Of a DNA stretch of 64,000 nt, positions 5,577 to 41,652 are shown piece by piece. Every line of letters begins with the position of its first letter. Within the stretch, counting starts at the first letter, position 1. The position numbers and the translations under genes are program-made. The notes under the pieces are model-generated. The model was given only the letters and a program-made list of their open reading frames with translations, ran no database searches and was not told the origin of the DNA. The stretch is from NCBI GenBank assembly GCA_044222185.1, contig JBGANV010000001.1:1728001-1792000 (forward strand). The letters are read 5' to 3'. Origin of the DNA: Planctomycetota bacterium (GTDB lineage Bacteria > Planctomycetota > GCA-002687715 > CAIWVZ01).

Positions 5577-7685
5577 ATGAATTCAACCACGCTCGGACGG
5601 CGGTGTGGCCCTCGGTGCAACCCACCGATCGGCGTCGTCGCGCGCTCTCTGGCGGCAGCCCTCGTCATCGCCGGGTTCTCCATCGCGCAGTCGACCCAGC
5701 AAGCCGCGGTCCTCGTGAGCGCCACCGTCTCGACGAGTCCGCCTTCCATCAGCTTCTCCTGGCCGGCGGATTCCTCGGCGTCGAGCTACGCAGTGTACCG
5801 GCGGCTGAGTGGCGCAACGGCGTGGGGAACACCGACGACGATCCCCGGCGGCGCGTCCGCAACGTCGTGGGTCGACACCAGCGTCGTCCCCGGCACGCGG
5901 TACGAGTACTGGTTCAACAAGTCGGGCTCGGTCGCGGGACGAAGCCTCGTCGCGTCTGGCATCGAAGTGCCTGCGGTGGACGCGCGTGGCAAGCTCGTCC
6001 TCATGGTGGACGCGACGAAGGTCTCGGCCCTGGGCCCACGGCTCGATCGACTGATGAACGACCTCGTCGGCGACGGGTGGACGGTGCTGCGGCACGACGT
6101 CCTTCCCACGCAATCCGTACCCAGCATCAAGGCTCTCATCGTCGCGGACTACAACGCGGATCCGGCGAACGTCCGCGCGGTGTTCTTGCTGGGCCGGATC
6201 CCGGTCCCCTATTCCGGCATCATCGCGCCCGACGGTCATCCAGATCACCAAGGTGCCTGGCCGGCCGACGTGTACTACGGCGAGATCAACGGAACCTGGA
6301 CCGACGTCTCGGTAAATACCACGACGGCATCCCGCCAGGAGAACAAGAACGTCCCCGGCGACGGCAAGTTCGACCAGAGCCAGATCCCGAACGACGTGGA
6401 CCTCATGGTCGGGCGCGTCGACCTCTCCAACATGCCGGCGTTCGGCACGACCGAGGACGTGCTGCTCCAGAACTACCTGGACAAGGACCACGACTATCGC
6501 CACGGGGTCTTCACCGCCGATCGACGCGCCGTCATCGACGACAACTTCGGATACTTCGCCGGCGAGGCCTTCGCGGCGACCGGGTGGCGCAACTTCTCCG
6601 CGCTGCTCGGAGTGTCGAACGTCGTGGCGGCGGACTATTTCACGACGCTGAACACGACCTTCGGCGGCGGTCATCTGTGGTCCTACGGCTGCGGTGGCGG
6701 CTCCTACACGAGCGCGGGCGGCATCGGCTCGACGACGGATTTCACGAGCAGCACCAACCGCAACGTGTTCACGATGTTGTTCGGCAGCTACTTCGGCGAC
6801 TGGGATTCCCAGAACGACTTCCTGCGTGCGCCGCTCTGTACTGGATGGACGCTGTCGAGTTGCTGGGCAGGGCGACCCCACTGGTCGTTCCATTTGATGG
6901 GCATGGGTGACACGCTCGGGCACTGCGCGCGGTTCAGCCAGAACGACACGGTCGCGGGCGGTTTCGGCACGCGGTCGATCCACGTGGCGTTGATGGGTGA
7001 TCCCACCCTGCGCGAGCATGTCCTCTCGCCGCCGGCGAACGTCGCGGCGCTCGCGGGAGGCGGGCAGGTCGCCGTCACGTGGGCCGCGTCGCCTGCGGTC
7101 GTTGCGGGCTACCACGTCTATCGCAGCTCATCGGCCTCGGGGCCGTTCACGCGCCTCACGACGGCGCCGGTCACGGGGCTGAGCTTCGTCGATCCGGCGC
7201 CGGTAGCGATGACCGACATCTACATGGTCCGGTCGATCGCTCTCGAGTCGGGATCGAGCGGCTCCTATTGGAACTCGAGTCAGGGTGTCACGGCGACCGC
7301 GTGTCCGGCGCCGACCGCCATCGCCCAGAGCATCGGGTCCTCGTGCGGCGTCGTGCCGCCATCGCTCCAAGGCACGCCTCCGATCATCGGCCAGGCGGTG
7401 ACCCTCTCCGTCACCAATGGAACGCCGAACGCCGCCGGCGGGATCTACGTGGGCGTACTCGGGACTCCGACGGCAGTCGGGAACGGATGCACGTTGCAGC
7501 TCGATCTCCCGACCCTCGCGCTGTTCGCGCCAATCCAGCTCACGCCCCAAGGCGCGTGGTCGCTCTCGACGTCGCTCCCGAACGACCCGACCCTCCTGTG
7601 TCGCGGCGCCGACTTCCAAGCCGTCGTTTTCGAGTCAGGCGGCGTCGCGCTGACCAACGCCCTCCACGTGGTCGTCGGCAACTGA
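5577..7685 (+). CDS. Secreted FN3 plus peptidase C25 (gingipain)-like domain protein with shared C-terminal domain
   Basis: FN3-like segments (YAVYRR...YEY; YHVYRS) flank a domain with FLLGRIPVP, ADVYYG, VGRVD, GSYFGDWD and LMGDPTL motifs; start chosen at ATG 7 nt after TAGGAT. Confidence 0.7.
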   Translation: MNSTTLGRRCGPRCNPPIGVVARSLAAALVIAGFSIAQSTQQAAVLVSATVSTSPPSISFSWPADSSASSYAVYRRLSGATAWGTPTTIPGGASATSWVDTSVVPGTRYEYWFNKSGSVAGRSLVASGIEVPAVDARGKLVLMVDATKVSALGPRLDRLMNDLVGDGWTVLRHDVLPTQSVPSIKALIVADYNADPANVRAVFLLGRIPVPYSGIIAPDGHPDHQGAWPADVYYGEINGTWTDVSVNTTTASRQENKNVPGDGKFDQSQIPNDVDLMVGRVDLSNMPAFGTTEDVLLQNYLDKDHDYRHGVFTADRRAVIDDNFGYFAGEAFAATGWRNFSALLGVSNVVAADYFTTLNTTFGGGHLWSYGCGGGSYTSAGGIGSTTDFTSSTNRNVFTMLFGSYFGDWDSQNDFLRAPLCTGWTLSSCWAGRPHWSFHLMGMGDTLGHCARFSQNDTVAGGFGTRSIHVALMGDPTLREHVLSPPANVAALAGGGQVAVTWAASPAVVAGYHVYRSSSASGPFTRLTTAPVTGLSFVDPAPVAMTDIYMVRSIALESGSSGSYWNSSQGVTATACPAPTAIAQSIGSSCGVVPPSLQGTPPIIGQAVTLSVTNGTPNAAGGIYVGVLGTPTAVGNGCTLQLDLPTLALFAPIQLTPQGAWSLSTSLPNDPTLLCRGADFQAVVFESGGVALTNALHVVVGN

Positions 7686-27227: not shown

Positions 27228-27527
27228 TCAACCGAGCCACCGGCTGAGGACGCTCATCAGCTCACTGAACCCGTGATCCTCGTGTCTCTCGATGCACTCC
27301 GGCTCGCCGTCGCGACTCGCTTCGACCTCGCAGAAATATCGTCCCGGTGGCATTTGGAACGTCGACACATACGCGACTAGTCCCGGCCGCGACGTCGCGC
27401 CGATCCCGATTGCACACAGGTCGGCATCCCAATGGTCTACGGTCACCCATCCATGCTCTGCCAACGCGCACCGCTCGAGCAATTGCTCGATTGCTGGATC
27501 TTTCACCACGGCAAGAACTCCAAACAC
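27228..27527 (-). CDS. Small hypothetical protein
   Basis: Protein-like composition (VDHWDADLCAIGI...YVSTF); true start may be a downstream GTG (V-K-D-P). Confidence 0.55.
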   Translation of the reverse strand: MFGVLAVVKDPAIEQLLERCALAEHGWVTVDHWDADLCAIGIGATSRPGLVAYVSTFQMPPGRYFCEVEASRDGEPECIERHEDHGFSELMSVLSRWLG

Positions 27528-27751
27528 TGAGGCTCTGGGGATAGTGGCGCCGCCTGGGCGAATGCTGCGACGACTCGGGTCACACGCTGGCTCCGATGCC
27601 CCCTTGACCCGACTGATCGCCTACGCGCCAAGGTGCGTGCCATCGCTGGGGCGCCCATCGCCACGGTGGTTCCCTCAGCGTAGGCCGTTCCGTTCACCCG
27701 TCAACCGTCATCGACTCACGCTGTACGATCAGAACCCAAAGGAGTCCCACG

Positions 27752-28261
27752 ATGAAAGGCTTTCTGGCGGGTGTTGGTGCCGCGACCGTGCTGTTCGCGC
27801 TGACGTCGTTCGCGTACTGGTCCGGCAAGGCGGAGAGAGTGGCGCAGCCACCGCCCACGGCGAGGCGAACCGGACCGCTCCGGATCGAGGATCTCACGCT
27901 GGACCGAGCGTTTCGCCAGCGTATCGACGTTCCGCTCGTTGGCTCGGCGCTCGCAGTCCCGTTTCCTCCGACCGTCGGGGTCGTCATTCGCTCCCTCACG
28001 ACGACGCGGAGTGGAGACCCCGACAACGGCAGCCTTCAGGTTCACATGGCGATAAACGGCACTCCGGACGAGCGCGTGATGTTCGGTTTGATCTACGGGT
28101 ACAACTCGGACGCCGATCGCGGCCAAACGGTGACGCTCGATCCGCCGCTTGTCGTGCGCCCCGGGGATGCATTGACAATGTGGTTCGAGGGGCTCTCTGC
28201 GTCGCAGACGTCGTTGAACCTCACGATCGGCGGCTATTTCGTTTACCCCGGCGAGGTGTAG
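27752..28261 (+). CDS. Small exported protein, paralog of element gene 38199-38651
   Basis: AAGGAG RBS; MKGFLAGVGAATVLFALTSFAYWSG; shares PFPPT and DPPxxVRPG motifs with the paralog. Confidence 0.75.
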   Translation: MKGFLAGVGAATVLFALTSFAYWSGKAERVAQPPPTARRTGPLRIEDLTLDRAFRQRIDVPLVGSALAVPFPPTVGVVIRSLTTTRSGDPDNGSLQVHMAINGTPDERVMFGLIYGYNSDADRGQTVTLDPPLVVRPGDALTMWFEGLSASQTSLNLTIGGYFVYPGEV

Positions 28262-28738
28262 TCGTGATTCGGCGCTGCGTCGGAATGCGATTCGAGGAAT
28301 GCGGTGGCATCGAAGCAATTGAGCTCGGGCAGCACCTCCTGGTCGCTGAGGCGTTCGCGTTGCGTTCACGATGACGTCTCAGCTACGTGACCCCGTCGGC
28401 GGCTGCCGCCTCCCCCGGAAGCCCCTCCACCCTGCCGCGCAGGAGGAAGATTCACGACGCACAACGCCAAGTCGATCGCGGCGAAGCGTGGGGGTGCGGG
28501 GAACACGTCGGTCGGGTCGAGCCGGGCGGTGGGTTCGACGCCGTTGTCCGGGCAGTCGGCGGCTGGAGAGTGAGCCTCCCCGATCAGGCTTGCCCACCGA
28601 CCGCCCACACTCCGAGCGCCCGGAATGGCGTTCGGTGTCTCAGCGTGGCGAACCGCTCGACGCGGCGCGTCGTCCTCTCTTCGGCCTGAAACCGTTGCGA
28701 CAGCCCGCGTCGTGACACCATGTCGCACGCTGTCTGAA

Positions 28739-28781
28739 ATGGGAGCGCCGGGGGTCGAACCCGGGACCTACGGATTAAAAA
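28739..28781. repeat. att core duplicate (3' half of tRNA-Lys), distal end of the integrated element
   Basis: 43-bp exact direct repeat ATGGGAGCGCCGGGGGTCGAACCCGGGACCTACGGATTAAAAA, also at 40079-40121. Confidence 0.95.
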
Positions 28782-28920
28782 CGACCCCAGGCGACCGGAC
28801 CGATCACGACGTCCCAAGCGGACAGAGTACGACAGAAGCCTTGCGAGACAACGACTTCCGACCATTCCCGTTCGAGTGAGTCGCACGGCCATCTGGACGC
28901 CAGCGGACCCGAAACGGTCG

Positions 28921-28944
28921 CGAAGTTGGCAGTATTCTGGCAAT
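28921..28944 (+). promoter_or_regulatory. Putative integrase arm-type binding site
   Basis: CGAAGTTGGCAGTATTCTGGCAAT, 23/24 identical to 39982-40005. Confidence 0.65.
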
Positions 28945-28966
28945 GTCATCGCTCCGAACGACGCCG

Positions 28967-31768
28967 TCAACGTTTCGCCCGTCGGGACGGATTTCGAACC
29001 AAGGGTCCAACTAACCCCTCATACCGCCTGAAGAGCTCCTCCATGCGTTCCCGCTCGGATGCGAATGCTCCACCTCGATAGCAGCGATCCACTGCCCGAT
29101 CGAGCTGCTGGTGCGCGTCTACGAGATCGGGGGGCATCGAAAGAGGATCGTAGATGTCAGCGAAGGTCGCCTTCCCGTGTGGCGGCAGGTAGCGCTCGCG
29201 CACTTGCAAGACCAACTGTGCCGCAGACGTAACTTTCGATCGCCGCCGATCATCCACGCGAGGCCAGGGAAAGTTGTTGTAGATGAGCGTACTCGAGTAG
29301 CGATAATCCGATTTTAGTCGCCCGCCGATGGTGCGGACCCATGCCATGTGCATGGCTGACGTCACTATCCCAAATTCCCACAAGCCAGCTTGCTCAATAA
29401 CGAACAACTCCGTGCTCGCTATGACGTTTGCATCGAGAAATCCGATCGGTATGTAGCGGCGCACCTCGGCGGATGTCTTTGGCACGGCCAGGTAGGAACC
29501 CGACGGTTGACGGATCTCGCCGAATAGACTCGGTTGCATAGCGAGGTGTTTTGTAGCTTCACGAGAGCTGCGACTCCTCACTTCGCGCACCGCCTCGACA
29601 CGTTCTAAGAGGCGAGGCATGCCACGAAGCACCGACGGATCAACGCCGACGAGCCAGAGGCACCACCGATCAAGCCCGTTGATGAACTCCACTGAACCCC
29701 GGAATGGCCTGATAAACGGAGCCGTGCCCGGCTCCTCCGCGATTAGTGCGTTCCGTTCTGCGGAACTCAGCAGGAGGTAGCCCCCATCATTGGGCATACT
29801 CCCAAATGAAATGGGCCGTTGACCACTTAGTGGACGCTGGGTGAGAGAAACGACCACATCAGAGCCCGCGATGAGATAGGGACTGATGTTGGCAACCCTC
29901 GTCGCCGTCGCCGCTCCATCAGGACCGTACTCAAATATCATCTTCGGATCATAGTTGCGAGCGCCGAAGCCAACTATCACCACATGAACGCTAGCGCCGC
30001 CACGCGCCTCGCTCTGCCACCGAAATGTACGATGGGCTATGTGGATCTTGACGCCATGCTTCCCATAGAGGGTCGACCAGAGGATTTCGACTTGCTCGCC
30101 TTGCGCAATAGAGTTCGTTGAGACAAACGCAACGCGGCAATCCGTCCCTTCTATGAACTGAGCTGCCTTTCGATACCAGCAAGTCACATAGTCAAGCGTT
30201 AGGCCTCCAGCTGTGTCGCCCCAGACTCTTTCCATATCCGAAGTCTGGCTTGCCTTACGAAACCTTTTTCCGACGAAGGGTGGATTGCCGAGCACGTAGG
30301 TGCAATCCGCGGCCGGGATGAGGTCATTCCAGTCAAAATCCAATGCGTTGCGACAAAGCACATGCGGCGACTTCTCAAGTGGAAGTCTTTTGTAGCTCTC
30401 ACCAAACGCCTCCGACACGGCGGTGTTCATCTGATGGTCCATGAGCCAAATCGCTACTTCTGCAATCCTGGCGGGCCATTCATCTATTTCGATCCCATAG
30501 AATTGGTCGACGTCAACCCACACGATCTGCCGAATGTCAAGCAGCTTCTCGTCGGGATTGTAGATTTCTTTGAGCACGTCCAATTCTAGCGAGCGCAGCT
30601 CTCTATAGGCGATGATGAGAAAGTTCCCGCAACCGCAGGCAGGATCAAGGATATTCACACTCCGGAGTTTTGCGTGAAACGCACGAAGGCGTGCGTCGCG
30701 TCCGGTCGATCGGTCGGCTTTCCTCAATTCAAATTCCGTGCGAAGCGAGTCGAGGAACAGTGAGCGTATCACCCGGAGAATGTCCCGCTCAGAGGTGTAA
30801 TGTGCGCCTGCTTGGCGACGCTCGGTGTCCAGAAGCACCCCCTGGAACAGGCTGCCAAATACAGCAGGTGACACTTTCGCCCAGACGAAGTCGGTGGCTG
30901 CCAACAATGCGGCCCGCATTGCTCGAGTGAAGACCGGAAACGAAAGACGTTCGGCAAACAAGTCGCCATTGACATAGGGGAACAAGGCGACATCGTCCGG
31001 GAGAGCAGCCTGCCGTTTTTCCGAGGGCGTATTGAGAATGTCGAAGAGGTAGTTGAGTTGCGCCCCTACGTCCGCACCATCCTCGGACGTGCGCTCCCTC
31101 AAGAATGATTGGAACGCGTTGGGCTCAAATACGCCAGTGTCTTCAGCGAACAAACAGAACAGTATCCGAACGAGCAGGCGCTCCAGGTCCGGACCCGCAA
31201 CGCCACCCCCCTTGAGGGCATCGTGGAGCTCGCACATCCGCGCATACGCCTTCTCATTTGCCGGATCTTGGGGGTCGACGCGCCGCAGAGACTCGCCCTT
31301 GATAAATGCGAAGTCCCTCACATGCTTATGGAGCTGTGATAGTGGAACTATTTTTGGAATGATCTCACTGGCACCACTTGGCTTCGGGCTATCCGACTCC
31401 AGGTCATAGAGCGCGATTCTCTGAAAGTCGGATACAATGATAAATCGTGGGACCGCGTCATCCCGGCCCTCTCGTATGAGGTCCGCAATGTAGGAGAAGG
31501 CCTGAGACTCTGCTCGATCCAGGCTCTCACCTCGGCTCTTGTGTTCGACCAGCAGTGTCCCGCTCCAAAGCAGGTCTATTCGATTATACCGCTTACGAAT
31601 GTTCTTAACCGCTACTTGGAACGTCGCCAGATGACGACGGTTCCTTCCAAAAACCTGGAAGAACTCGTTCCAGAATGTCTGGCTCTCACCAGCTTCGCTA
31701 GCAACGTCTTCGAATGCTCGCGCAAATCTCATTGCGCGGTCGCGAACTTCATTCCAACTAAGGCTCAT
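28967..31768 (-). CDS. MmeI-like type IIL restriction-modification enzyme (fused endonuclease, N6-adenine methyltransferase and TRD)
   Basis: N-terminal ESQTFWNEFF and IDLLW...LVEHKS nuclease motif; GAHYTS, LDPACGCGNF, GNPPF; GRLKSDYRYS...YNNFPWP; visibly lower GC than flanks. Confidence 0.92.
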   Translation of the reverse strand: MSLSWNEVRDRAMRFARAFEDVASEAGESQTFWNEFFQVFGRNRRHLATFQVAVKNIRKRYNRIDLLWSGTLLVEHKSRGESLDRAESQAFSYIADLIREGRDDAVPRFIIVSDFQRIALYDLESDSPKPSGASEIIPKIVPLSQLHKHVRDFAFIKGESLRRVDPQDPANEKAYARMCELHDALKGGGVAGPDLERLLVRILFCLFAEDTGVFEPNAFQSFLRERTSEDGADVGAQLNYLFDILNTPSEKRQAALPDDVALFPYVNGDLFAERLSFPVFTRAMRAALLAATDFVWAKVSPAVFGSLFQGVLLDTERRQAGAHYTSERDILRVIRSLFLDSLRTEFELRKADRSTGRDARLRAFHAKLRSVNILDPACGCGNFLIIAYRELRSLELDVLKEIYNPDEKLLDIRQIVWVDVDQFYGIEIDEWPARIAEVAIWLMDHQMNTAVSEAFGESYKRLPLEKSPHVLCRNALDFDWNDLIPAADCTYVLGNPPFVGKRFRKASQTSDMERVWGDTAGGLTLDYVTCWYRKAAQFIEGTDCRVAFVSTNSIAQGEQVEILWSTLYGKHGVKIHIAHRTFRWQSEARGGASVHVVIVGFGARNYDPKMIFEYGPDGAATATRVANISPYLIAGSDVVVSLTQRPLSGQRPISFGSMPNDGGYLLLSSAERNALIAEEPGTAPFIRPFRGSVEFINGLDRWCLWLVGVDPSVLRGMPRLLERVEAVREVRSRSSREATKHLAMQPSLFGEIRQPSGSYLAVPKTSAEVRRYIPIGFLDANVIASTELFVIEQAGLWEFGIVTSAMHMAWVRTIGGRLKSDYRYSSTLIYNNFPWPRVDDRRRSKVTSAAQLVLQVRERYLPPHGKATFADIYDPLSMPPDLVDAHQQLDRAVDRCYRGGAFASERERMEELFRRYEGLVGPLVRNPSRRAKR

Positions 31769-32126
31769 CGGTTATCGATGGATCGAACTTGCGCAACGCT
31801 GCCGGGGCCAACCATTGAGCCGCGAACGCCTTTATCGCCGTCGAGCACGACAGCCGTCTTCGCGATCATGCGTTTCCGCATCTCTGACTCCAGTTGGCCG
31901 CACGACCACCGTCGTGGAAGCGAGATTCCATCGAGTGACGGTACCACGGGCCCGACGGGCTTCGAGACTGCGAACCGTGGAAGATCGCTGCGGTTCGCCA
32001 CGCGCTGCGGATCGCGTACCTTTCGTCGTCGAGCACGGGCCCGGCCTGATCACCGGCTCCGGGGCGCGTCTCCCGGCGCGCCCACGCTCGGCTACATCCC
32101 GGGAGCCGTCGAACCGGGAGACGGCC

Positions 32127-33017
32127 ATGTCGGAGGAAGAGGACCGCGTCGAGAGGCTTCGCGCGAAGATGAAGGCTTGGGTCGAGGAACACGCGCTGCG
32201 ACGAGTCTTCGGTGAGAGCTTCCAGTCGCTTCCTCCAGAGTCTCGCGCCCTCTTTGAGGGCCTCCTGAACGACTTTCGAAGCATCGTCACCGCGCGGCGT
32301 ACCGCCATCGAGACCCTGCTCGATCGTTGGCGCAAGATGCCTGAGGAGAGTTACCGCGGCGATCTCGGGCTTGAGTCGTTCTGCACGTCCGTCCGCATGA
32401 TCCGCGACGAAGCCGACTGGTACTCGCGCCTAAAGTGGATACCAGACTGCGACGAGTATTGGTCGTACTCCGGGAGCCTGATGCACCTTTGGGCTGGGAC
32501 TGTTCACGTCGCGCGCTTCCTCGGATTGACCGACACACCGTTTGCGAAGGCCAACACGCTGGAACGGATGCGATTCGATCCACGCGTGCCGGGAACCATC
32601 CACGACATGCTTGCCAACGATCTGGCGATAAGGCGGTGGTTTGACGGAATCGAGGAGTATCTCCCGAAGCTCCGCTCGGGGCTCGGCAAGGCACGGGTCA
32701 TCACCATCTCAAAGTTCATCGCTGGAGTCCAATCCCTCATCTCGAAGCTTGAGCGCGCCCAATTTGCCCGGGGTTTTCGGAGGGCAGCGAAACTGGAGGC
32801 ACCGAGGTATGCAGCGCCAGCTGGATGCGGTGCACACTCCAGGTACCTACTCGACCGATTGATCGAGCTTTCGAAGCGTCAGAATCTGGACGTGCCTGCA
32901 TTCGTCGTGGGCAAGTTGATCGAACTCGCGGAGGCGGACGTGCCACCGGCGTGGCCGAAGGCCCGCGGCACGACGAAAGGCACGAGCAAGCGGTCCAAGA
33001 AGCGGTCGAAGCGGTAG
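32127..33017 (+). CDS. Hypothetical element protein with basic tail
   Basis: GGGAG RBS; helical, protein-like composition; no family recognised. Confidence 0.65.
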   Translation: MSEEEDRVERLRAKMKAWVEEHALRRVFGESFQSLPPESRALFEGLLNDFRSIVTARRTAIETLLDRWRKMPEESYRGDLGLESFCTSVRMIRDEADWYSRLKWIPDCDEYWSYSGSLMHLWAGTVHVARFLGLTDTPFAKANTLERMRFDPRVPGTIHDMLANDLAIRRWFDGIEEYLPKLRSGLGKARVITISKFIAGVQSLISKLERAQFARGFRRAAKLEAPRYAAPAGCGAHSRYLLDRLIELSKRQNLDVPAFVVGKLIELAEADVPPAWPKARGTTKGTSKRSKKRSKR

Positions 33018-33061
33018 GCGTTCGCTTCCGCGCTCCCTGGTTCTCATGCCAGGTTGCGCGC

Positions 33062-33259
33062 ATGAAACGCACCGATCCGCTCGACGGCTTCATGACTCCG
33101 GAAGCCTTTGCCAAAGCCGTAGGAGTTCCGACCTCGAACGTTCGCCGTTGGATATGCAATGGAGAGCTGCCCGCCCTCAAAGTCGGTCGGCTGCTCGTGA
33201 TCCCGGAGAACGCGCTTCAGCTCGCGCTTGAGGACGCTCGGCGTCCAGGAGGGCGATGA
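33062..33259 (+). CDS. Excisionase-like HTH_17 DNA-binding protein
   Basis: MTPEAFAKAVGVPTSNVRRWICNGELPALKVGRLLVIP. Confidence 0.85.
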   Translation: MKRTDPLDGFMTPEAFAKAVGVPTSNVRRWICNGELPALKVGRLLVIPENALQLALEDARRPGGR

Positions 33260-33594
33260 TGACCGCCCCGCTCGTCTCACTCCTGGGCCCCGAGGACATC
33301 CGCGCCATCTGCCGTGAGCAGGCAGACGCAGAACGCCCCCTCCTTGCGAGAGCCGTCGTCGATTTGCTCCGCGCCGAGTTGGATCGCGATGAAGACGACG
33401 ATCCGCCGCCCGGCGATGCGGGTCTGATCCCAATCCGCGAGGTCGCGCGGCGGACCGGACTCCATCCTCGGTCGATCCGGAGGGCGATCTTGTCGGACGA
33501 CTTCCCTCCGGGGATCCCGCTCGGCCGCAACGGTCGCGGGCTGCGGTGGCGCCCCTCGGACGTCGCCGCCTTCATCGCGAGTCGGCAGCCATGA
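33256..33594 (+). CDS. AlpA-family transcriptional regulator/RDF
   Basis: LIPIREVARRTGLHPRSIRRAILSDDFPPGIPLG...LRWRPSDVAAFI; ATGA overlaps. Confidence 0.8.
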   Translation: MMTAPLVSLLGPEDIRAICREQADAERPLLARAVVDLLRAELDRDEDDDPPPGDAGLIPIREVARRTGLHPRSIRRAILSDDFPPGIPLGRNGRGLRWRPSDVAAFIASRQP

Positions 33595-34502
33595 TCGCCT
33601 TCGCTGACCGAGTCGCGGAGCTGGCGCTTTCCGGCGCAGACGTCCTGAGCCTTCATGCGGTCGAGGCGCACCGAGCAGGCCCGAACCACGCCCTGATCCT
33701 GTGCCCCATCCACGACGAGTCTCGGCCGTCTTGCTCCGTCCGGTTGGCGACCGGGCAGGCGCGATGCCACGCATGCGGGTTTCGCGCGAGGGACGTCGTC
33801 TCCCTTCACCGAGCCCTTGGAAGATTCGCGTCGATGGGAGATGCGCTGCGCGACCTCCGCGCCCGCTCCGGCGCCTCGATACCTCGGCTCCAGCTTCGCC
33901 CCTCCGTGTATTCATCAGCGCGCTCGCCCGGCGCGCCGATCGGACAGCCCGAGATCGTGAAGACATGGAGGTACGACCGGGCTGACGGGTCCATCGCGTT
34001 CGAGGTGCGGCGGATCCAGTTCCGCCTCTCGGACGGGACGTGGGAGATCGATCCCGGCAAGGGCAAGCTCCGGAAGTCTTACCGGCCGTTTGATCCGGTC
34101 GCGAGAACGCTCGGAATGCCCCCCGGGTTCGATCGACCCGGCTCCCGGCCGCTGTTCGGACTGTCTGCAATCTTCTCCGCCGATCCAGCGATCGAGATCA
34201 TCATCACCGAGGGGGAGCCGGCAGCGGATGCCGTGGCATCGATGGGGAGCATGGCCACGACGTCGAGCGGGGGCGCCGCATCGCCCGACCGGACAGATTG
34301 GTCGCCGCTCGCGGGTCGCGACGTCCTGGTCTGGCCCGACAACGACGAGGCTGGCCAGCGGTACGCGCGGTCTGTTACCGCCCTGCTCGGCGCACTCTCC
34401 CCCGCGCCTCGCGTCCGATGGGTCGACGTGGCGCAACTCGGATTGCCGGTGGGCGGGGATGCGGTTGATTGGGTCGCCCGCCAGAAGCGGAGCGCACCGT
34501 GA
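33591..34502 (+). CDS. DNA primase (CHC2 zinc finger plus TOPRIM)
   Basis: CPIHDESRPS...CHACG; IITEGEPAADA; WPDNDEAG; GGDAVDW. Confidence 0.85.
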   Translation: MIAFADRVAELALSGADVLSLHAVEAHRAGPNHALILCPIHDESRPSCSVRLATGQARCHACGFRARDVVSLHRALGRFASMGDALRDLRARSGASIPRLQLRPSVYSSARSPGAPIGQPEIVKTWRYDRADGSIAFEVRRIQFRLSDGTWEIDPGKGKLRKSYRPFDPVARTLGMPPGFDRPGSRPLFGLSAIFSADPAIEIIITEGEPAADAVASMGSMATTSSGGAASPDRTDWSPLAGRDVLVWPDNDEAGQRYARSVTALLGALSPAPRVRWVDVAQLGLPVGGDAVDWVARQKRSAP

Positions 34503-36121
34503 GCGACGAGCGACCTTCGATCGCTTTCAACGCTTCTATCGCGGGCGCACTCCCAACGTGCGAGCCGCCATCGGTCGCGGGCGCGGAGTCCGAAGATCGT
34601 CTCGACCTTCCTGCGCGGCCGGCTCCGTTGGGATCGGCGGCGCTTCACGGTCTCGTCGGGGACGTCGTCCGCATGATCGAGCCGCACTCCGAATCAGACC
34701 CGGCGGCGATCCTGTTCCAGTTCCTCGCGGCCTTTGGAAACGTGGTCGGCCGACGGCCCCACCGTCAAGTCGAGGCCGCGCGCCACACCGCCAACGTCTA
34801 CGTCGTCCTCGTGGGCAGCACGTCGAAGGGCCGGAAGGGAACGGCGTGGGGCCGCGTGCTCCAGCTCTTCGAGACGGTCAACGAATCGTGGATCGAGAAT
34901 GCCGTCGTGGACGGTCTGGGAAGCGGCGAGGGATTGATCGCAGCCGTCCGCGACCCCAGGGAAAAGAAGGAAGCGGTTCGGGTCGATGGCAAGGTCGTCG
35001 ACTACCAGTCCGTGATCGAGGACCACGGAGTCAGCGACAAGCGGCGCATCGTCGCGGCCACGGAGTTCTCGTCGGTGCTGAGAGTCGCGACGCGTGAAGG
35101 GAACACTCTCTCCGCAGTCCTGCGGAACGCTTGGGATACCGGCGACCTGCGAATCCTCATCAAGAACAACCCGATGATCGCCAGCGACGCGCACATAAGC
35201 GTCGTCGGACACATCACACGGCAGGAGCTTCTATCGCAGCTCAAGGACGTCGAGGCCGCGAACGGTTTCGGAAACAGGTTTCTCTGGGTGTGGTGCCGGC
35301 GCTCGAAGGAGCTTCCCAATGGAGGGTCGATCGACGAGTCGCTGTTCCGAGAGACGACCGCCCGAATCCGAGATGCCGTCGATGCCGCTCGGGAGACAGG
35401 CGCCCTCGATTGGACGCCCGACGCCTCGCGACGGTGGTGCGAGTGCTACAGCGCCCTCTCGGCGGAGAGACCCGGGCTCCTCGGCGCGATCCTGGCGCGC
35501 TCGGAGGCTCAGGTGGTCCGCCTTGCGTTGATCTACGCGCTCCTCGATCGCTCCCAGGTCATCGGAATCGAGCACCTCGAAGCCGCGTTCGCCGTCTGGA
35601 AGTACGCGGAGAGTTCGGCGCGTTACATCTTCGGGGACAAGCTCGGGAACGCTGCCGCCGACAAGATCCTCGCGGCCCTTCGCGGCCGGCCCGAGGGCAT
35701 GACGCGAACGGAGATCAACGCTCTATTCCAGAACCATCGGGCGGGCGACGTCAGGGAAGCGCTGCGGATCCTCGTCGAGTCGAATCTTGTGGAGGCGAAG
35801 GACGTCCCGACGGGCGGGCGGCCAGCCCAACGGTGGTTCGCACTCGGTACCCCTGCGATAGAAGCTACGAAAGCTATCGAAGGGAGGGATCTTTCATCGC
35901 TTCCGTCGCTTTCATCGCAAGCGCGTGCCATGCAACCGGCCGTCGAGCTGGCGAACGGCGAGTACGAAAGCACGCGATCGGGAGCGGAGCGGCCAGCGGA
36001 ACATGACGGCGTTCTCTCGTGCGAGCGGCTTCGGGAGGAAGCGGACGAGCGAGCCGCGATCCAGGCCGCGGATGGTTGCCTCAAGGCCACGTCCGACGCG
36101 TTCGAGGGCGGGCCGTGGTGA
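34499..36121 (+). CDS. DUF3987 (YfjI-like) replicative P-loop ATPase/helicase with C-terminal winged helix
   Basis: GTGA overlap with primase; LVGSTSKGRKGT Walker A-like motif; GSGEGLI, LRNAWD, NGFGNRFL. Confidence 0.8.
   Translation: MSDERPSIAFNASIAGALPTCEPPSVAGAESEDRLDLPARPAPLGSAALHGLVGDVVRMIEPHSESDPAAILFQFLAAFGNVVGRRPHRQVEAARHTANVYVVLVGSTSKGRKGTAWGRVLQLFETVNESWIENAVVDGLGSGEGLIAAVRDPREKKEAVRVDGKVVDYQSVIEDHGVSDKRRIVAATEFSSVLRVATREGNTLSAVLRNAWDTGDLRILIKNNPMIASDAHISVVGHITRQELLSQLKDVEAANGFGNRFLWVWCRRSKELPNGGSIDESLFRETTARIRDAVDAARETGALDWTPDASRRWCECYSALSAERPGLLGAILARSEAQVVRLALIYALLDRSQVIGIEHLEAAFAVWKYAESSARYIFGDKLGNAAADKILAALRGRPEGMTRTEINALFQNHRAGDVREALRILVESNLVEAKDVPTGGRPAQRWFALGTPAIEATKAIEGRDLSSLPSLSSQARAMQPAVELANGEYESTRSGAERPAEHDGVLSCERLREEADERAAIQAADGCLKATSDAFEGGPW
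35854..35919. repeat. Iteron-like 9-bp repeats, three direct plus three inverted; candidate origin
   Basis: CGATAGAAG CTACGAAAG CTATCGAAG - 8 nt - CTTTCATCG CTTCCGTCG CTTTCATCG. Confidence 0.6.
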
Positions 36122-36318
36122 ACCGCGATCCTCGTCGAATGACGCTCGGGCTACCTTGGCGCGCTTTGCAGCGGCACTCGCTCACCGTTCGATTGCTTCG
36201 GGAGCGGTCTCGCACCACGAGGCTCGACGCAGATTCGATTCTTGCGTCGGTTCGCGTCGCTCGCAGTCAGATCGTGGGAAGCAACACGTGACGCTCTCGC
36301 AGATGAAAAGGAGGACAA

Positions 36319-36828
36319 ATGGACAGTGCACTTCCCCAAGTTTCGATCGAAAAACGTGACGATGGAGGCGAAAACGGCTCCGATTCCGTCCGATTGAGTC
36401 CGAAACAAGTCGCCGTTCTGGCGGCGATTCTCGCCGGTGCGTCCCTGGCGGGAGCGGCGAAGGCGGCGAGCCTGCATCCCGAAACTGTCCGAAGATGGCG
36501 GCGCGAGGATGGCCCGTTCCGCGACGCCCTGGCCGCTGGCATCCGTGCAATCCACGTCCACGTCAACGCTCGCATCGTGGGACTCGTCGATCGCGCGCTC
36601 GATTCCCTCGTGGACGTCCTGGAGGAAGCGCCGGACAGCCGGAGCCGCGTCCTCGCGGCGCAGACGATCCTGCAACTGGCCGGAGATCGACTCCGTCCTC
36701 GTGACGCAGACGTCCAGCACGCGTACTTGCAGAATCCGAAGGTCGAGCCGCTCATGGCGTTCGACGTCAACGCGGCGCGGGAACACTGGCTGATCCCGGC
36801 GGAGGAAGAGGGCGAGGCTGGGAAATGA
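36319..36828 (+). CDS. HTH protein resembling terminase small subunit-like proteins of satellites
   Basis: LSPKQVAVLAAILAGASLAGAAKAASLHPETVRRWRREDGPF; SRVLAAQTIL; AGGAGG RBS. Confidence 0.6.
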   Translation: MDSALPQVSIEKRDDGGENGSDSVRLSPKQVAVLAAILAGASLAGAAKAASLHPETVRRWRREDGPFRDALAAGIRAIHVHVNARIVGLVDRALDSLVDVLEEAPDSRSRVLAAQTILQLAGDRLRPRDADVQHAYLQNPKVEPLMAFDVNAAREHWLIPAEEEGEAGK

Positions 36829-36873
36829 CGCGGTTTACTTACCTCCGTCTTCGCCTCGATCTTCCCTGGCGTC

Positions 36874-36948
36874 GTGTCTGCTTCTGTCACGAGACACTTG
36901 ACGTGGCGTCGCTCCGCGCTCTACATTCGGTGAGTCAGGAGCAGACAC
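36874..36948 (+). promoter_or_regulatory. Sigma70-type promoter of the serine recombinase bracketed by an inverted repeat (candidate res/operator site)
   Basis: TTGACG (36898)-N18-TACATT (36922); GTGTCTGCTTCTG (36874-36886) versus CAGGAGCAGACAC (36936-36948), 12/13 complementary. Confidence 0.6.
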
Positions 36949-37668
36949 ATGGCGACACGAGCAGTCGGCTACGTCAGAGTCAGCACGGAAGAGCAGGCGT
37001 CCGAGGGAGTCTCGCTCGCGGCACAACGGGACAGAATTACCCTCTACGCGAAGCTCAACGAACTCGACCTCGTCGCGATCGAGTCCGACGAGGGGCTGTC
37101 CGGGAAGCGAGCCGACAACCGTCCAGGGCTACAGGCGGCACTACGACGGCTCAGGATCGGCGACGCGACGGCGCTCGTCGTCGTGAAGCTGGACAGGTTG
37201 AGCCGCTCGACGCGGGACGTCCTGGACCTCGCGGACGGGTCGGGGCGGGAGGGCTGGAGCCTGCACTCCATCTCCGAGAAGCTCGACACCTCCACGGCAT
37301 CGGGGCGCTTCGTGCTGACGATCATGGCAGCGCTGGCGCAGATGGAGCGCGAGCAGATCGGCGAAAGGACATCGGCCGCGATGTCCCACATGAAGGCTCA
37401 GAGGCTCCGCGTCGGCTCCGTGCCGTTCGGATTCGACCTCGATGGAGATGGCCGGACCTTGCGGCCGAACGCCGTGGAGCTGGCGACGATCGACAAGATG
37501 CGGGCCATGCGGCAGACTGGCACGACGCTCCGCGAGATTGCAGCACGGCTCAATGCAGACGGCGTGCGACCGAAGCGAGCCGCGAGATGGTCGCCGGAGA
37601 CCATCCGGGCCTTGATCGCCTCGACGCACACGACGAACACGGTTTGTCAGGAGGGGACCCCTTGCTGA
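36949..37668 (+). CDS. Serine recombinase (resolvase/invertase family)
   Basis: GYVRVSTEEQ catalytic Ser motif; VVKLDRLSRS; DTSTASGRF; LAQMERE. Confidence 0.92.
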   Translation: MATRAVGYVRVSTEEQASEGVSLAAQRDRITLYAKLNELDLVAIESDEGLSGKRADNRPGLQAALRRLRIGDATALVVVKLDRLSRSTRDVLDLADGSGREGWSLHSISEKLDTSTASGRFVLTIMAALAQMEREQIGERTSAAMSHMKAQRLRVGSVPFGFDLDGDGRTLRPNAVELATIDKMRAMRQTGTTLREIAARLNADGVRPKRAARWSPETIRALIASTHTTNTVCQEGTPC

Positions 37669-37684
37669 CAGGAATGGGCAAGAA

Positions 37685-38062
37685 GTGGCGGCAGAATGGA
37701 TCCCGATCGCTGCGGCAGCACGAACACTCCGCGTTGGACGCTCGACGGTCGCGACGTGGCTGTCTTCACTTCCTCAGGCCGACGTGCGGAGAGATGGCGT
37801 GCGATGGTTCCTCCGTGCGAGCCTCGTGGACCGGCTCAGGAAGGACCAGGACGCGAGGCGGGCTGTCGCGGAGAAGAGCTACAGCGTTCGGAACCGTGAG
37901 CTGGCGAGCCTGCGAATCGAAGTGGACGAGCTGCGACGTGCCGTCGAATGGCTGGGCTCACGAGCTGGCGGGTTCCCGCAGGACGTCGCTCCGAAGCATC
38001 GCGCTGCCCCGCCCACGGGGGTACGGCTTCGGGGGGGCCGCCCCCGTCGTGCCCGCGGGTGA
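37685..38062 (+). CDS. HTH plus coiled-coil hypothetical protein
   Basis: WIPIAAAARTLRVGRSTVATWL; ELASLRIEVDELRRAVE. Confidence 0.55.
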   Translation: MAAEWIPIAAAARTLRVGRSTVATWLSSLPQADVRRDGVRWFLRASLVDRLRKDQDARRAVAEKSYSVRNRELASLRIEVDELRRAVEWLGSRAGGFPQDVAPKHRAAPPTGVRLRGGRPRRARG

Positions 38063-38198
38063 GGGTACTTACCTGCTCATCTTCGTCGACACCGTGTTCG
38101 AGATGCCCCCAGGGTATACCCCCGAAGGGGGGACCGGCCCGCTCGCCAGTCCGCTGGAGACTAGTCACCTTGTCTCTGCGCCCTCGCTTCGCGCCATC

Positions 38199-38651
38199 TC
38201 ACACGTCGCCGAGGCCGAGGGTCCAGCCGCCAAGACGAAGCGACGGGGGGTTGTTGCCGAACGTCGAGCAAATGATGGTCAACGTGCTACCCGGCCTGAC
38301 GAGGATAGGTGGATCGAACTCGGTGCCGTCGAACCGCGCGACGGGCACGCCGTCGACGATGATCTGGCCGCTGCTACCTGCGAAGTTCACAGCCTGCGAG
38401 ATCGCGATGCCGGACGTTGGGGGAAACGGGAGCGTGATTTCGAACGCGGATTGCCCCGGGATCGGCGAAAACGCAGTCGACGGGAGCGCTACCTGAAACG
38501 ATCGATTCAGCGGCAGGTCCGCGAGCTTGATCGAGCCGACCTGTTGTCGATTAGGTGGCGCGGCTGCGGCGGCGTGGCCCGACCAGTACGCGAACGACGT
38601 CAACGCAAACAGCACGTTCGCGGCACCCACACCAGCAAGAAAGCCTTTCAT
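38199..38651 (-). CDS. Small exported protein, paralog of 27752-28261
   Basis: AAGGAG RBS; MKGFLAGVGAANVLFALTSFAYWSG; divergent from the integrase. Confidence 0.75.
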   Translation of the reverse strand: MKGFLAGVGAANVLFALTSFAYWSGHAAAAAPPNRQQVGSIKLADLPLNRSFQVALPSTAFSPIPGQSAFEITLPFPPTSGIAISQAVNFAGSSGQIIVDGVPVARFDGTEFDPPILVRPGSTLTIICSTFGNNPPSLRLGGWTLGLGDV

Positions 38652-38716
38652 CGTGGAACTCCTTTGGCTGAAGATCGTACACCCGAACTGCACGAAGGAA
38701 GCGAACGGAGCGTGAC

Positions 38717-40141
38717 ATGAGCGGACGGCAAAAGGGACGCGGCCGAGGACGGCTCATTCGGCAGAAGGGCGCGGACGGACGCCACGTCTACCTCGGGGAC
38801 TGGATCGGCGCCGATGGCAAGCGACACCGTAGGTCGCTGTCGTCGGACAAGCTGGTAGCGGAGCGGATGCTCGCGAAGCTGATTCGAGAACGGGATCTCG
38901 CTGCATCCGGCCTCATCGTCGAGGAGGGCATGGAGCGGCGTCTCGTGGACCTGACGACGGCATACGTCGCGGATCTCCGGGCGATCCGCACGGAGTCCTA
39001 CGCCGATCGCGTGGAGGCGGACCTGCGGCACCTGAGCGATTACCTCGGCAACGTGAAGATCCGGGAGGTGGTCCCCGAGCGAATGCTCGAACGCCGACGG
39101 AAGCGCATCACGGAGGGCGCGAGTCACGCGACGATCAACCTCGAAGTCGGCTCGTTACGCGGCTGCTTCAACTGGGCGATTCGGAGCGGGCTCCTGGGGG
39201 TCAATCCTCTGGCTCACGTCAAGCCGCTGTCACTGACGGAAGCGGACCAAGCTCGGCCCCGTCGAGCGCTCTCGGAGGAAGAGGTATCAGCATTCCTACG
39301 CGCCGCGATCGATCTTGACGTCGAACGTCACGAGTACGTCCTCGCGCTCCGCACCATCGCGAGCAAGCAACGAGGCGCCGCGTACGCCGCTCAGGACCGG
39401 CTCCCTCCAATCCCGCAGGCCGTCCTGTGGCAGACGATCCTGGCGACAGGCATGCGATGGGGAGAGACCGCCGCGCTGACCTGGGGCGACTTCGATCCCG
39501 ACCGACGGAGCATGCTCATCCGGGCAGCCACGACGAAGGGAAAGCGCTCGCGCATGGTTCCCGTCCCCTCCTACCTCATCGTCGAGCTGGCGACGCTTCG
39601 ATCAGCGCACGAGCGTCGTCTCGCGCGCGCTCCCTGGCCCGCGGACTTCATCTTCCTGACGCCGTTCGGAAAGCCGTGGACAGACACCGGCTGCCATTAC
39701 CGGCTCGACCTCTTCAACGCGACGCTGGCGCGTGCGGAGATCGAGAAGGTGGACGAGCTGGGCCGATCGGTGGACGTGCACGCGTTGAGGCGCACGGCGA
39801 ACACGAGGCTGCTCCGTCACGGCGTTCCAATCATGACGGCGGCGACAATCCTCGGTCACCAGGATCCGAAGATCACGGCGAAACACTACACCGAGTTGCA
39901 TCTCGCGGACACGCTCGCCGCGGTCGCCTCGGTCCCTCCGGCCGCCGCGTCCGAGCCATCGAACACGGGCAAAGTCGCAGTCGAAGCTGGCAGTATTCTG
40001 GCAATCCGAAGAGGCGGTGGCGGATCCCGCAACAACCAACTTCCGCGCAACGTGTGCGCGCGCCACGACTTGAACGAGATGGGAGCGCCGGGGGTCGAAC
40101 CCGGGACCTACGGATTAAAAATCCGGTGCTCTACCGACTGA
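38717..40141 (+). CDS. Tyrosine integrase; 3' end runs through att into the antisense strand of tRNA-Lys
   Basis: TGMRWGE (R), TTKGK (K), HALRR (HxxR), LGHQ (H), KHYT (Y). Confidence 0.93.
   Translation: MSGRQKGRGRGRLIRQKGADGRHVYLGDWIGADGKRHRRSLSSDKLVAERMLAKLIRERDLAASGLIVEEGMERRLVDLTTAYVADLRAIRTESYADRVEADLRHLSDYLGNVKIREVVPERMLERRRKRITEGASHATINLEVGSLRGCFNWAIRSGLLGVNPLAHVKPLSLTEADQARPRRALSEEEVSAFLRAAIDLDVERHEYVLALRTIASKQRGAAYAAQDRLPPIPQAVLWQTILATGMRWGETAALTWGDFDPDRRSMLIRAATTKGKRSRMVPVPSYLIVELATLRSAHERRLARAPWPADFIFLTPFGKPWTDTGCHYRLDLFNATLARAEIEKVDELGRSVDVHALRRTANTRLLRHGVPIMTAATILGHQDPKITAKHYTELHLADTLAAVASVPPAAASEPSNTGKVAVEAGSILAIRRGGGGSRNNQLPRNVCARHDLNEMGAPGVEPGTYGLKIRCSTD
39982..40005 (+). promoter_or_regulatory. 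Putative integrase arm-type binding site
   Basis: CGAAGCTGGCAGTATTCTGGCAAT, 23/24 identical to 28921-28944. Confidence 0.65.
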
Positions 40142-40152
40142 GCTACGCTCCC
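40080..40152 (-). tRNA. tRNA-Lys (UUU), CCA not encoded
   Basis: GGGAGCG acceptor stem, GCTC/GAGC D arm, anticodon loop TTTTTAA, T loop TTCGACC. Confidence 0.95.
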
Positions 40153-40287
40153 GCTGAGCGGGCGCAGTGTATCGAGAGAGATGCGCGGCAACGAGGCGGG
40201 AGTTGGCGGCGAGGAGGCGGCTGCGAGGAGGGACCCGAAGCCGGACGTGGTTAGGCTGGCGCGGCGAATTCAGTGAGTGGCCCCTCG

Positions 40288-41007
40288 ATGCGCATCGCGA
40301 TCGTCTCCGACATTCATGGCAACAGGACGGCGTTCGATGCCGTCGTTTCCGACCTGCGGCAAACGGCCCCAGACGTCGTGCTGCATGGGGGCGATCTGGC
40401 TGACGTGGGCCCTCACCCCGCGGAGATCGTCGATCGGATTCGGGATCTGGGATGGCACGGGGTCAGGGGCAACACGGACGAGATGCTCTGCCGGCCCGAA
40501 TCGTTGACGGAGTACGCGTCGCAGTTCCCGGCACTGGCCTCGTTGTTCACGGCCGTCGAGGAGATGGCCGTCGCGACGCGACTCGCGCTCGGCCGCGAGC
40601 GACTGGAGTGGCTGGGCAAGCTCCCGCGGATCCACCGGGAAGGACCGCTGGCGTTGGTGCACGCAAGCCCGGCGACGCCGTGGCGGTCGCCGGGTGCCGG
40701 ATCGACCGACGCCGAACTCGAAGCCATCTTTGGTCCGCTGGGGTGTTCGGTCGCGGTGTTCGGCCACATCCACCATCCATTCATCCGGAGGATCGGCACG
40801 CTCACGGTCGCGAACTGCGGGAGCGTCGGGATGTCGTATGACGGCGACCGCCGCGCGGCCTACCTCCTCGTTGACGATGAAACGCCGTCGATCCGACGCG
40901 TGGAATACGACGTCGAGACGGAGGTCCAGGCGGTGCGCTGCTGCGGCTGGCCACATGCGGACTGGGTGGCGCGAGTGTTGGAGAGTGCGGGGCCGCAAAT
41001 GCCTTGA
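40288..41007 (+). CDS. Metallophosphoesterase (YfcE/calcineurin-like family)
   Basis: SDIHGN, GGDL, RGNTD, HASP, FGHIH, NCGSVG. Confidence 0.9.
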   Translation: MRIAIVSDIHGNRTAFDAVVSDLRQTAPDVVLHGGDLADVGPHPAEIVDRIRDLGWHGVRGNTDEMLCRPESLTEYASQFPALASLFTAVEEMAVATRLALGRERLEWLGKLPRIHREGPLALVHASPATPWRSPGAGSTDAELEAIFGPLGCSVAVFGHIHHPFIRRIGTLTVANCGSVGMSYDGDRRAAYLLVDDETPSIRRVEYDVETEVQAVRCCGWPHADWVARVLESAGPQMP

Positions 41008-41085
41008 GCGGCCCGACGGTGCGGGAGCCCCGACCTCGCGACGCGATCGCGCGCGGTCACCTCGCCCACACGAAACGGCGACCCG

Positions 41086-41652
41086 TCAAACGGTCATCAC
41101 CTCGGCCTGCTTCTTCTTGAACAGGTCGTCGACCTTCGCTTCCTCGGCCTTCAACAGATCCGAGATCTGCTTGTCGAACTTCTTGTGATCGTCCTCGGTG
41201 ATCCCGTGTTCCTTCTTCGCCTGCTCGGCCTTCTTCAGGATGTCGCGGCGTAGATTGCGGAGGGAGACGCGCTGCTGTTCGCAGAGATCCTTGACGTGGT
41301 GAACGAGCTGTTTGCGGCGCTCCTCGGACAGCGGCGGGAGGTTGATGCGGATGATCTTCCCGTCATTGTTCGGCGTGATGCCGAGATCGGACGCGGAGAT
41401 CCCGCGCTCGATGTCCTTCAACGTCGTGCTGTCGAACGGTTTGATCTGAAGCGTGCGCGCGTCGGAGACCATGATCTGCGCGAGGTTTTTCAGGGGTTGC
41501 GTCGACCCGTAGGCCTCGACGCGGATGTTCTCGACGAGCGCCGGCGTCGCCCGCCCGGTGCGGATGCCCTTCAGTTCCTCCTCGAGGAACGTCACGGCCT
41601 TGTTCATCTTGTCCTTGGTTTCCTTCAGGCCCGCGTCCGTCGTGAACGTCAT
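41086..41652 (-). CDS. frr: Ribosome recycling factor
   Basis: IRTGRATPAL, LGITPNNDG, PPLSEERRK; synteny. Confidence 0.97.
   Translation of the reverse strand: MTFTTDAGLKETKDKMNKAVTFLEEELKGIRTGRATPALVENIRVEAYGSTQPLKNLAQIMVSDARTLQIKPFDSTTLKDIERGISASDLGITPNNDGKIIRINLPPLSEERRKQLVHHVKDLCEQQRVSLRNLRRDILKKAEQAKKEHGITEDDHKKFDKQISDLLKAEEAKVDDLFKKKQAEVMTV

Follow-up and report, generated by a model that had tools for sequence, protein, structure and literature searches.

An island in a Planctomycetota tRNA-Lys gene whose integrase gene contains its own attachment core and is predicted to exchange its C-terminus upon integration

The DNA analyzed here, called the window throughout, is a stretch of 64,000 nucleotides (nt) from a Planctomycetota bacterium (assembly GCA_044222185.1, contig JBGANV010000001.1, positions 1,728,001 to 1,792,000 of the forward strand; coordinates below count from its first letter). 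It carries an 11,340-bp integrated element encoding a tyrosine integrase whose open reading frame (ORF), int, extends without interruption through the attachment (att) core and into the antisense strand of the tRNA-Lys(UUU) gene serving as target. Read from the sequence, recombination at this core necessarily interconverts a gene of 500 amino acids (aa) and a gene of 474 aa. The resulting C-terminal swap is probably, though by no means assuredly, a by-product of the packing of the att site into the 3' end of int, with little selected effect of its own. The evidence for this architecture, the DNA sites it appears to contain, its recurrence among related integrases and the other explanations of the swap are considered in turn, before the element is compared with the known integrases that overlap their attachment site.

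The limits of the element are drawn by a 46-nt direct repeat (28736-28781 and 40076-40121, 45/46 identical) that bounds positions 28782 to 40121. The 7.08-Mb assembly encodes 58 tRNAs, and the one concerned here is its sole tRNA-Lys(UUU). The int ORF contains no stop codon ahead of this repeat; the core begins with codon 454, which lies 63 codons past the catalytic tyrosine, and translation would terminate 62 nt into the tRNA gene, whose antisense strand provides the integrated gene with its final 6 codons and its TGA. The lone mismatch between the two repeats, A at 28738 and G at 40078, falls in a glutamate codon of the int frame and is synonymous. An earlier reading of the same DNA, hereafter the original prediction, had described an integrase devoid of a stop before att and ending in IRCSTD after 474 residues in the integrated state, which the ORF at 38717-40141 bears out. 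The range it had given for this feature, 38717 to 40152, is right at its start; its end is that of the tRNA gene, and the ORF stops at 40141.

The excised state can be reconstructed from the same coordinates. Codon 469 opens with position 40121, whose junction with 28782 in the circular form is in frame, giving a threonine codon, the 31 residues designated P0002 and a TGA at 28877-28879. The predicted excised protein would therefore comprise 468 + 32 = 500 residues, the last ten being DNDFRPFPFE, and both the in-frame joint and the position of the stop agree with what had been proposed initially. Since the P arm and the core of att lie within the last ~250 nt of int, recombination anywhere in the core swaps the 3' end of the gene, and integration exchanges 32 residues for 6, all of them downstream of the catalytic tyrosine Y391. 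The two joints diagnostic of excision (40121/28782 and 28736/40076) were sought in the Logan contigs of four runs covering 27500-41500 and none was listed there, these contigs dropping rare variants and being unable to show absence. The source run splits into unitigs at the repeat, and 28752-40108 is recovered as a single unitig of 11,357 nt.

The integrated form of the protein, P0001, belongs to the tyrosine recombinases. Pfam recognizes a Phage_integrase domain (PF00589, E 2.4e-20) at residues 231-394, preceded by an integrase N-terminal/core-binding domain at residues 74-171. The R-K-H-R-H-Y catalytic set is present: across 11 aligned sequences, R247, K274, H355, R358 and H381 are invariant and Y391, encoded by codon 39887-39889, is nearly so (at least 90%). 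As the catalytic domain ends at residue 394, it was correctly anticipated that every catalytic residue lies upstream of att. In the AlphaFold2 (AF2) model, the body of the protein reaches predicted local distance difference test (pLDDT) scores of about 80-96, and residues 12-63 adopt three strands followed by a helix (pLDDT 74-85), the shape of an arm-binding domain; no Pfam arm-binding family matched. The top Foldseek matches of this model were Tn1549 Int, full-length lambda Int (1z1g_A, E 3e-10), Xer and Cre. Residues 392-474 score below 50, and the tail of roughly 80 residues that follows Tyr391 is thus predicted by the model to be disordered.

Support for the predicted junction is provided by P0003, a gene call of 501 aa that shares 48% identity with P0001 and was made on a contig of 10,960 nt from a separate assembly. 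This protein keeps the N-terminus of P0001 as well as the GSILAI block of its tail, and crosses a tRNA-like core that differs from that of the window and is read in another frame. Its end, DNDFRPSPFE, matches the predicted excised end of the window integrase at 9 of 10 positions, flush with the C-terminus (pairwise E 6e-5). P0003 thus displays the attP-form reading in a relative. The AF2 model of P0003, built to see whether the terminal peptide docks on the enzyme, gives residues 426-501 a pLDDT below 50. A search with the tail of P0003 (residues 396-501) returned P0003 itself alone, 1 of 1138 candidates, in a set covering lengths of 275 to 877. The ends of the attP forms of two other relatives, P0013 and P0018, are unlike that of the window.

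Relatives with accessible DNA were collected from genome contigs (55 loci, the best, L009, being 57% identical and frameshifted), viral contigs (80 loci kept, best 38%) and metagenome contigs (28 loci, best 30%); among 401 genomes of the phylum, 9 had a match and none was closer than L009. Nearly all homologue records are labelled as metagenome-assembled genomes (MAGs) of Planctomycetota. The original prediction had called for an examination of whether homologous integrases also read through att, and the answer depends on the distance of the relative. The closest ones, namely P0003, P0004, P0013, P0018 and the same-genome paralogues L002 and L005 (41-57% identity), carry post-tyrosine tails of 77-111 aa that read into the tRNA antisense strand, whereas distant relatives stop 19-37 aa past the tyrosine. 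Early termination in close homologues, which had been put forward as the observation that would count against the proposal, is therefore not what the closest relatives display.

How general this arrangement is was estimated over the 48 loci at which tblastn reached the tyrosine region, antisense tRNAs being sought within 800 nt. Such a tRNA lies near 8 of them, and in 6 of these 8 the ORF ends in the tRNA or crosses it (the window, L002, L005, L014, L017 and L019); the two exceptions are L007, which stops 138 nt short of the tRNA, and the frameshifted L009. Loci lacking an antisense tRNA mostly stop 17-53 aa past the tyrosine, three viral contigs having longer tails. At the protein level, 149 sequences were considered (146 representative matches to P0003 together with P0001, P0003 and P0004), in 126 of which a regular expression placed the tyrosine. 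Tails of at least 55 aa occur in 31 of these 126 representatives, and a peptide resembling the antisense of a tRNA T-arm in 18 of the 31, a rough count also obtained by regular expression. The tailed relatives of at least 41% identity (P0003, P0004, P0013, P0018 and L002) have in common a GS[IN]LA block, with ARHDL in some of them.

Three of these loci deserve a description. L002 (G000:C1:665699-670057), in the same genome as the window, ends 55 nt into the antisense of a tRNA-Met and contains an internal TGA; within 50 kb on either side no second att repeat was found, nor was a second arm site (P' arm), and L002 is, from its sequence, a remnant. L005 (G000:C1:7060-10635), also in the same genome, is a truncated copy ending 64 nt into the antisense of a tRNA-Arg. 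L009, which is the same locus as L173, occupies a contig of 2258 nt labelled Planctomycetota and is present in a genome of the host's own family. It lies at tRNA-Lys(UUU) as well, and within positions 900-1200 it has suffered a 1-nt deletion in the region of the catalytic tyrosine codon and further frame changes in the tail; to judge by these lesions it would be either a pseudogene or an assembly error.

The conserved block of the tail appears to owe its conservation to DNA. Two 24-nt repeats (39982-40005 and 28921-28944) are identical at 23 of 24 positions, each containing two TGGCA motifs 11 nt apart. In the reconstructed attP these copies flank the core, the P copy lying 71 nt before it and the P' copy about 146 nt after it, beyond the stop codon of the excised form. 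Both the att repeat and the 24-nt repeat are far beyond chance expectation. With up to 2 mismatches, an 18-mer of the arm repeat has only 3 copies in the 7.08 Mb of the assembly, all of them in an integrase tail or att context. The third is in the tail of L002, where the DNA is identical at 18/18 positions and the encoded protein just 53% identical; over the whole repeat, the P' copy and the L002 copy are 24/24 identical. A search of the same genome for a second excised-form tail or P' arm found the 24-nt arm repeat alone. In L009, both half-sites read GTGCA rather than TGGCA, the 11-nt spacing being kept. Finally, at L015, an arm-like motif, TGGCAGCAATCTGGCAAC, is located in the 5430-5593 region. 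A tRNA-Ala has its 3' end 70 nt away, much the same spacing as in the window (74 nt), and the motif lies 1.2 kb downstream of a short-tailed int ORF of 414 aa, with no int homology in between; at that locus att seems, on sequence grounds, to be uncoupled from int. Because of the rarity of the 18-mer, the DNA identity with L002, the paired change in L009 and the existence of P' and L015 copies outside the ORF, the GS[IN]LA block, GSILAI in the window, is best read as the translation of a putative arm-type DNA site.

Whether the open frame of the tail is itself under selection was approached by codon statistics. Between the tyrosine and the tRNA, the int, +1 and +2 frames of the six read-through loci contain 0, 3 and 14 stops, the zero of the int frame being a matter of definition. 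In the window the corresponding numbers are 0, 1 and 0, and the other frames of the window, L002 and L005 hold 0-1 stops each. By our own arithmetic, ~14% of 80-codon stretches would be free of stops by chance at 66% GC. A stop-free tail alone is not beyond chance, stop statistics being poorly discriminating in DNA of such composition. The GC content at third codon positions (GC3) is 0.80 over codons 1-394, 0.60 over codons 406-450 and 0.66 in the 32 codons specific to the excised form. Together with the low pLDDT of the tail and the DNA-level reading of GSILAI, these figures lend no direct support to the suggestion of the original prediction that a state-dependent tail could tune the stability or directionality of the integrase.

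These observations can be assembled into a coherent scheme. An apparently intact 11,340-bp element is inserted in the sole tRNA-Lys(UUU) gene of its host, and its lambda-like int overlaps its own attP. In the circular, attP-bearing form, the gene encodes 500 aa and draws its end from element DNA; in the integrated, attR-bearing form, it encodes 474 aa and draws its end from the antisense strand of the tRNA. So far the scheme can be read from the sequence. Beyond it, the N-terminal domain would bind the TGGCA repeats and one Xis-like ORF of the element would direct excision. The tail of ~80-110 aa would mostly be translated as a passenger, the needs of att (arm sites and core) dictating the DNA sequence in a GC-rich genome where stops seldom occur. 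The swap of 32 residues for 6 would then follow automatically from the close packing of att and int, and catalysis would feel little or no selected effect of it; a modest shift in activity, as in Mx8, is conceivable.

We consider this by-product explanation somewhat more probable than its negation because the tail is modelled with pLDDT below 50, its GC3 is lower than that of the body, the other frames are nearly as open, GSILAI appears to be a DNA site, P0013 and P0018 have attP-form ends unlike that of the window, the Xis-like, primase/helicase and recombinase genes speak for an intact element, and Mx8 provides a precedent for the arrangement. Several points weigh against it. Net length differences between the pre-core tails of the window and L002 are multiples of 3, which suggests some coding constraint; the terminal decapeptide, kept at 9/10 positions in P0003, is over-conserved for a passenger unless a protein binds the underlying DNA; at 6 of the 8 loci followed by an antisense tRNA, the frame stays open to a point inside that tRNA; and in phage Mx8 the swap alters the behaviour of the integrase (PMC6070905). 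The main competing explanation, which we hold to be possible and clearly less probable, is a regulatory self-editing of the Mx8 kind: the attP-form C-terminus would be functional, integration would yield a less active or redirected integrase, which would stabilise the integrated state, and excision would restore the fully active form. The conservation of the decapeptide at the exact C-terminus of P0003 and the recurrence of long tRNA-reading tails in the closest relatives (6 of 8 tRNA-adjacent loci, 31 of 126 tails of at least 55 aa) speak for it. In lambda Int and Cre, catalysis is under the control of the C-terminal tail, which we count in its favour. Mx8 offers a precedent for such a switch (PMC6070905). 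However, the tail and its end lack a confident structure in either form, the codon signal of the tail is weak, the post-core tails of P0013 and P0018 are not conserved, the P0003 tail search matched P0003 alone among 1138 candidates, and the conservation of the decapeptide could reside at the DNA level, as with the TGGCA site. A more specific proposal gives DNDFRP[F/S]PFE a function of its own, whether as a tail acting in trans, as a motif that binds a partner or as a signal for stability. Deleted by integration and restored by excision, it would form part of a reversible covalent switch in a clade known so far from Planctomycetota-labelled MAGs, evolved independently of Mx8. This we hold to be rather unlikely.

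The two other explanations bear on the reality of the 500-aa form and on the age of the tail. The element might no longer excise, so that the 474-aa form alone would be made and the longer one would be hypothetical. The contigs of the four runs in which neither attP nor the empty attB joint was seen point that way, weakly since rare variants are dropped from them, as do the decayed paralogues of the same genome (L002, with its internal TGA and no second att, and the truncated L005). This is nevertheless unlikely, given att repeats identical at 45/46 positions, arm sites at 23/24, an uninterrupted int, an N-terminus shared with P0003, the presence of Xis-like genes and the attP-form reading displayed by P0003. 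A chance loss of the stop in the window copy, the ancestral integrase ending soon past the tyrosine, would agree with the early stops of distant homologues (19-37 aa past the tyrosine) and with the ~14% of 80-codon stretches expected to be open. It is highly improbable, and largely refuted by the fact that all tailed relatives of at least 41% identity share the long form and its blocks.

The other features of the element are listed in the table. From its gene content, it is apparently an intact integrative island that combines a defence cargo with a replication module of small size. The segment carrying the MmeI-like gene has a GC content of 0.55-0.58, compared with about 0.65 around it. The two Xis-like ORFs (32825-33594) are, by their matches, candidate directionality factors. 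No virion gene was recognized among the 14 ORFs compared with Pfam and the 11 compared with PHROGs.

Table. Features of the element and of its attachment sites (window coordinates)
Feature	Position	Strand	Description
attL core	28736-28781	.	Displaced 3' part of tRNA-Lys (antisense as written); 45/46 identical to attR
Element left end	28782-28879	+	Last 32 codons and stop (28877-28879) of the predicted excised (attP) int
P' arm repeat	28921-28944	+	TGGCA at 28927 and 28938; outside any int frame; putative arm-type Int site
MmeI-family type IIL restriction-modification enzyme	28967-31768	-	933 aa, complete, cargo; all five MmeI domains, E 1e-87 to 2e-23
Two overlapping small ORFs, excisionase/MerR-like helix-turn-helix	32825-33259, 33256-33594	+	phrog_66 E 3.9e-8 and 3.2e-5; phrog_575
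Primase-like ORF	33546-34502	+	Pfam/PHROGs matches; GC3 0.79
Helicase/primase-like ORF	34469-36121	+	Pfam/PHROGs matches; GC3 0.79
Serine recombinase, resolvase/invertase type	36949-37668	+	239 aa; phrog_95 E 1e-59
int, tyrosine integrase ORF, integrated form (P0001)	38717-40141	+	ATG start; 474 aa; end ...GLKIRCSTD and stop
Post-catalytic tail, residues 392-474	39890-40138	+	pLDDT <50; doubles as P arm and core of att
P arm repeat	39982-40005	+	TGGCA at 39988 and 39999; in int ORF, encodes ...EAGSILAI...
attR core	40076-40121	.	tRNA 3' end to anticodon loop; within int codons 454-469
tRNA-Lys(ttt), i.e. tRNA-Lys(UUU), regenerated by integration	40080-40152	-	ARAGORN; sole tRNA in the window

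Antisense transcription from int into the tRNA gene is plausible from the geometry of the two genes; scans for terminators and promoters near int/tRNA and attL yielded nothing above shuffled sequences. Upstream of int, an ORF of 631 aa (36825-38720, + strand) whose TGA overlaps the int ATG was considered and set aside as a likely non-gene: the serine recombinase is contained within it in another frame, its GC content by codon position is 0.74/0.61/0.60 and it has no Pfam match. A more credible neighbour of int is the ORF on the minus strand at 38199-38693, whose GC3 is 0.77. The serine recombinase shares the element with the tyrosine integrase, and multimer resolution or inversion are possible roles for it. 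Pieces of the element from the MmeI gene and int (29396-30525 and 38847-40095) were also encountered with zero differences, at low depth, in short contigs (151-261 nt) of sludge metagenomes from two other studies; the element or its host is therefore not confined to the source sample.

Should the two forms differ in activity, Mx8 would be joined by a second integrase, of independent origin, that edits its own gene and so locks in integration; this one would come from a phylum that has received little attention and from a non-phage island carrying a restriction enzyme. For genome annotation, integrase ORFs running into tRNA genes are real and recurrent in this family and should be neither trimmed nor dismissed as artefacts. 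The locus also offers what looks like a clean example of an apparent protein conservation, GSILAI, that would in reality be a DNA arm-type site inside a coding sequence.

The location of attP inside int is already known from Myxococcus phage Mx8, where intP becomes intX (Tojo et al. 1996 and Magrini et al. 1999, as cited in PMC4383910 and PMC6070905), a precedent that the original prediction did not name, and the idea is therefore not new. As in Mx8, the ORF of a tyrosine integrase spans attP, the target is a tRNA gene, and a new C-terminus is acquired with the catalytic residues untouched: int runs through the core without a stop, its C-terminus would be replaced and the catalytic residues stay on one ORF. 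The long post-catalytic tail is a further likeness, Mx8 Int being 533 aa long with a Pfam domain region that ends at 355. About 112 residues are reportedly replaced by 13 in Mx8, and IntX is reportedly less active. The exchange is small here, 32 aa for 6 aa. In Mx8, attP lies within int, the gene acquires a new 3' end on integration, and the integrase is changed in specificity and not inactivated (PMC6070905). The two enzymes differ in ancestry as well, P0001 and Mx8 Int sharing 28% identity over 160 aa (E 4e-4), a resemblance at the superfamily level only. No full-length homology to Mx8 Int was found, and Mx8 was absent from the matches listed, 25 of 58 phage records. The hosts are a member of the Planctomycetota and a myxobacterium, and an 11-kb island without virion genes is set against a phage of 49.5 kb.

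Other systems resemble the present one in part. The SSV-type, or suicidal, archaeal integrases also have attP inside the int ORF (PMC7253208; PMC4383910), but their gene is split into two inactive parts on integration (PMC7253208), whereas here the catalytic residues remain on one intact ORF. Integration-dependent immunity of the mycobacteriophage BPs and its relatives similarly relies on an attP located in a coding sequence and on state-dependent C-termini; there the gene concerned is a repressor that loses an ssrA-like degradation tag (PMC4557955), unlike the int considered here, whose excised end ...PFPFE does not look ssrA-like. With the heterobivalent integrases of the lambda type, the protein would share its fold, judging from the match of the model to lambda Int, and putative arm-type sites repeated on both sides of the attP core, at about -130 and +150; the N-terminus, predicted as three strands plus a helix, may be comparable too. 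In lambda, by contrast, attP is separate from int. Lastly, the general organization is that of the tRNA-gene islands catalogued by Islander, in which the island lies between an intact tRNA gene (tDNA) and a displaced 3' fragment with the integrase by the tDNA (PMC4383910). Mx8 and SSV are named there as known integrases crossing attP, and the Islander pipeline has an exception for such integrases (PMC4383910). With an identity block reaching up to the anticodon loop, the element does not differ in kind from the Islander-type islands and represents one more of them.

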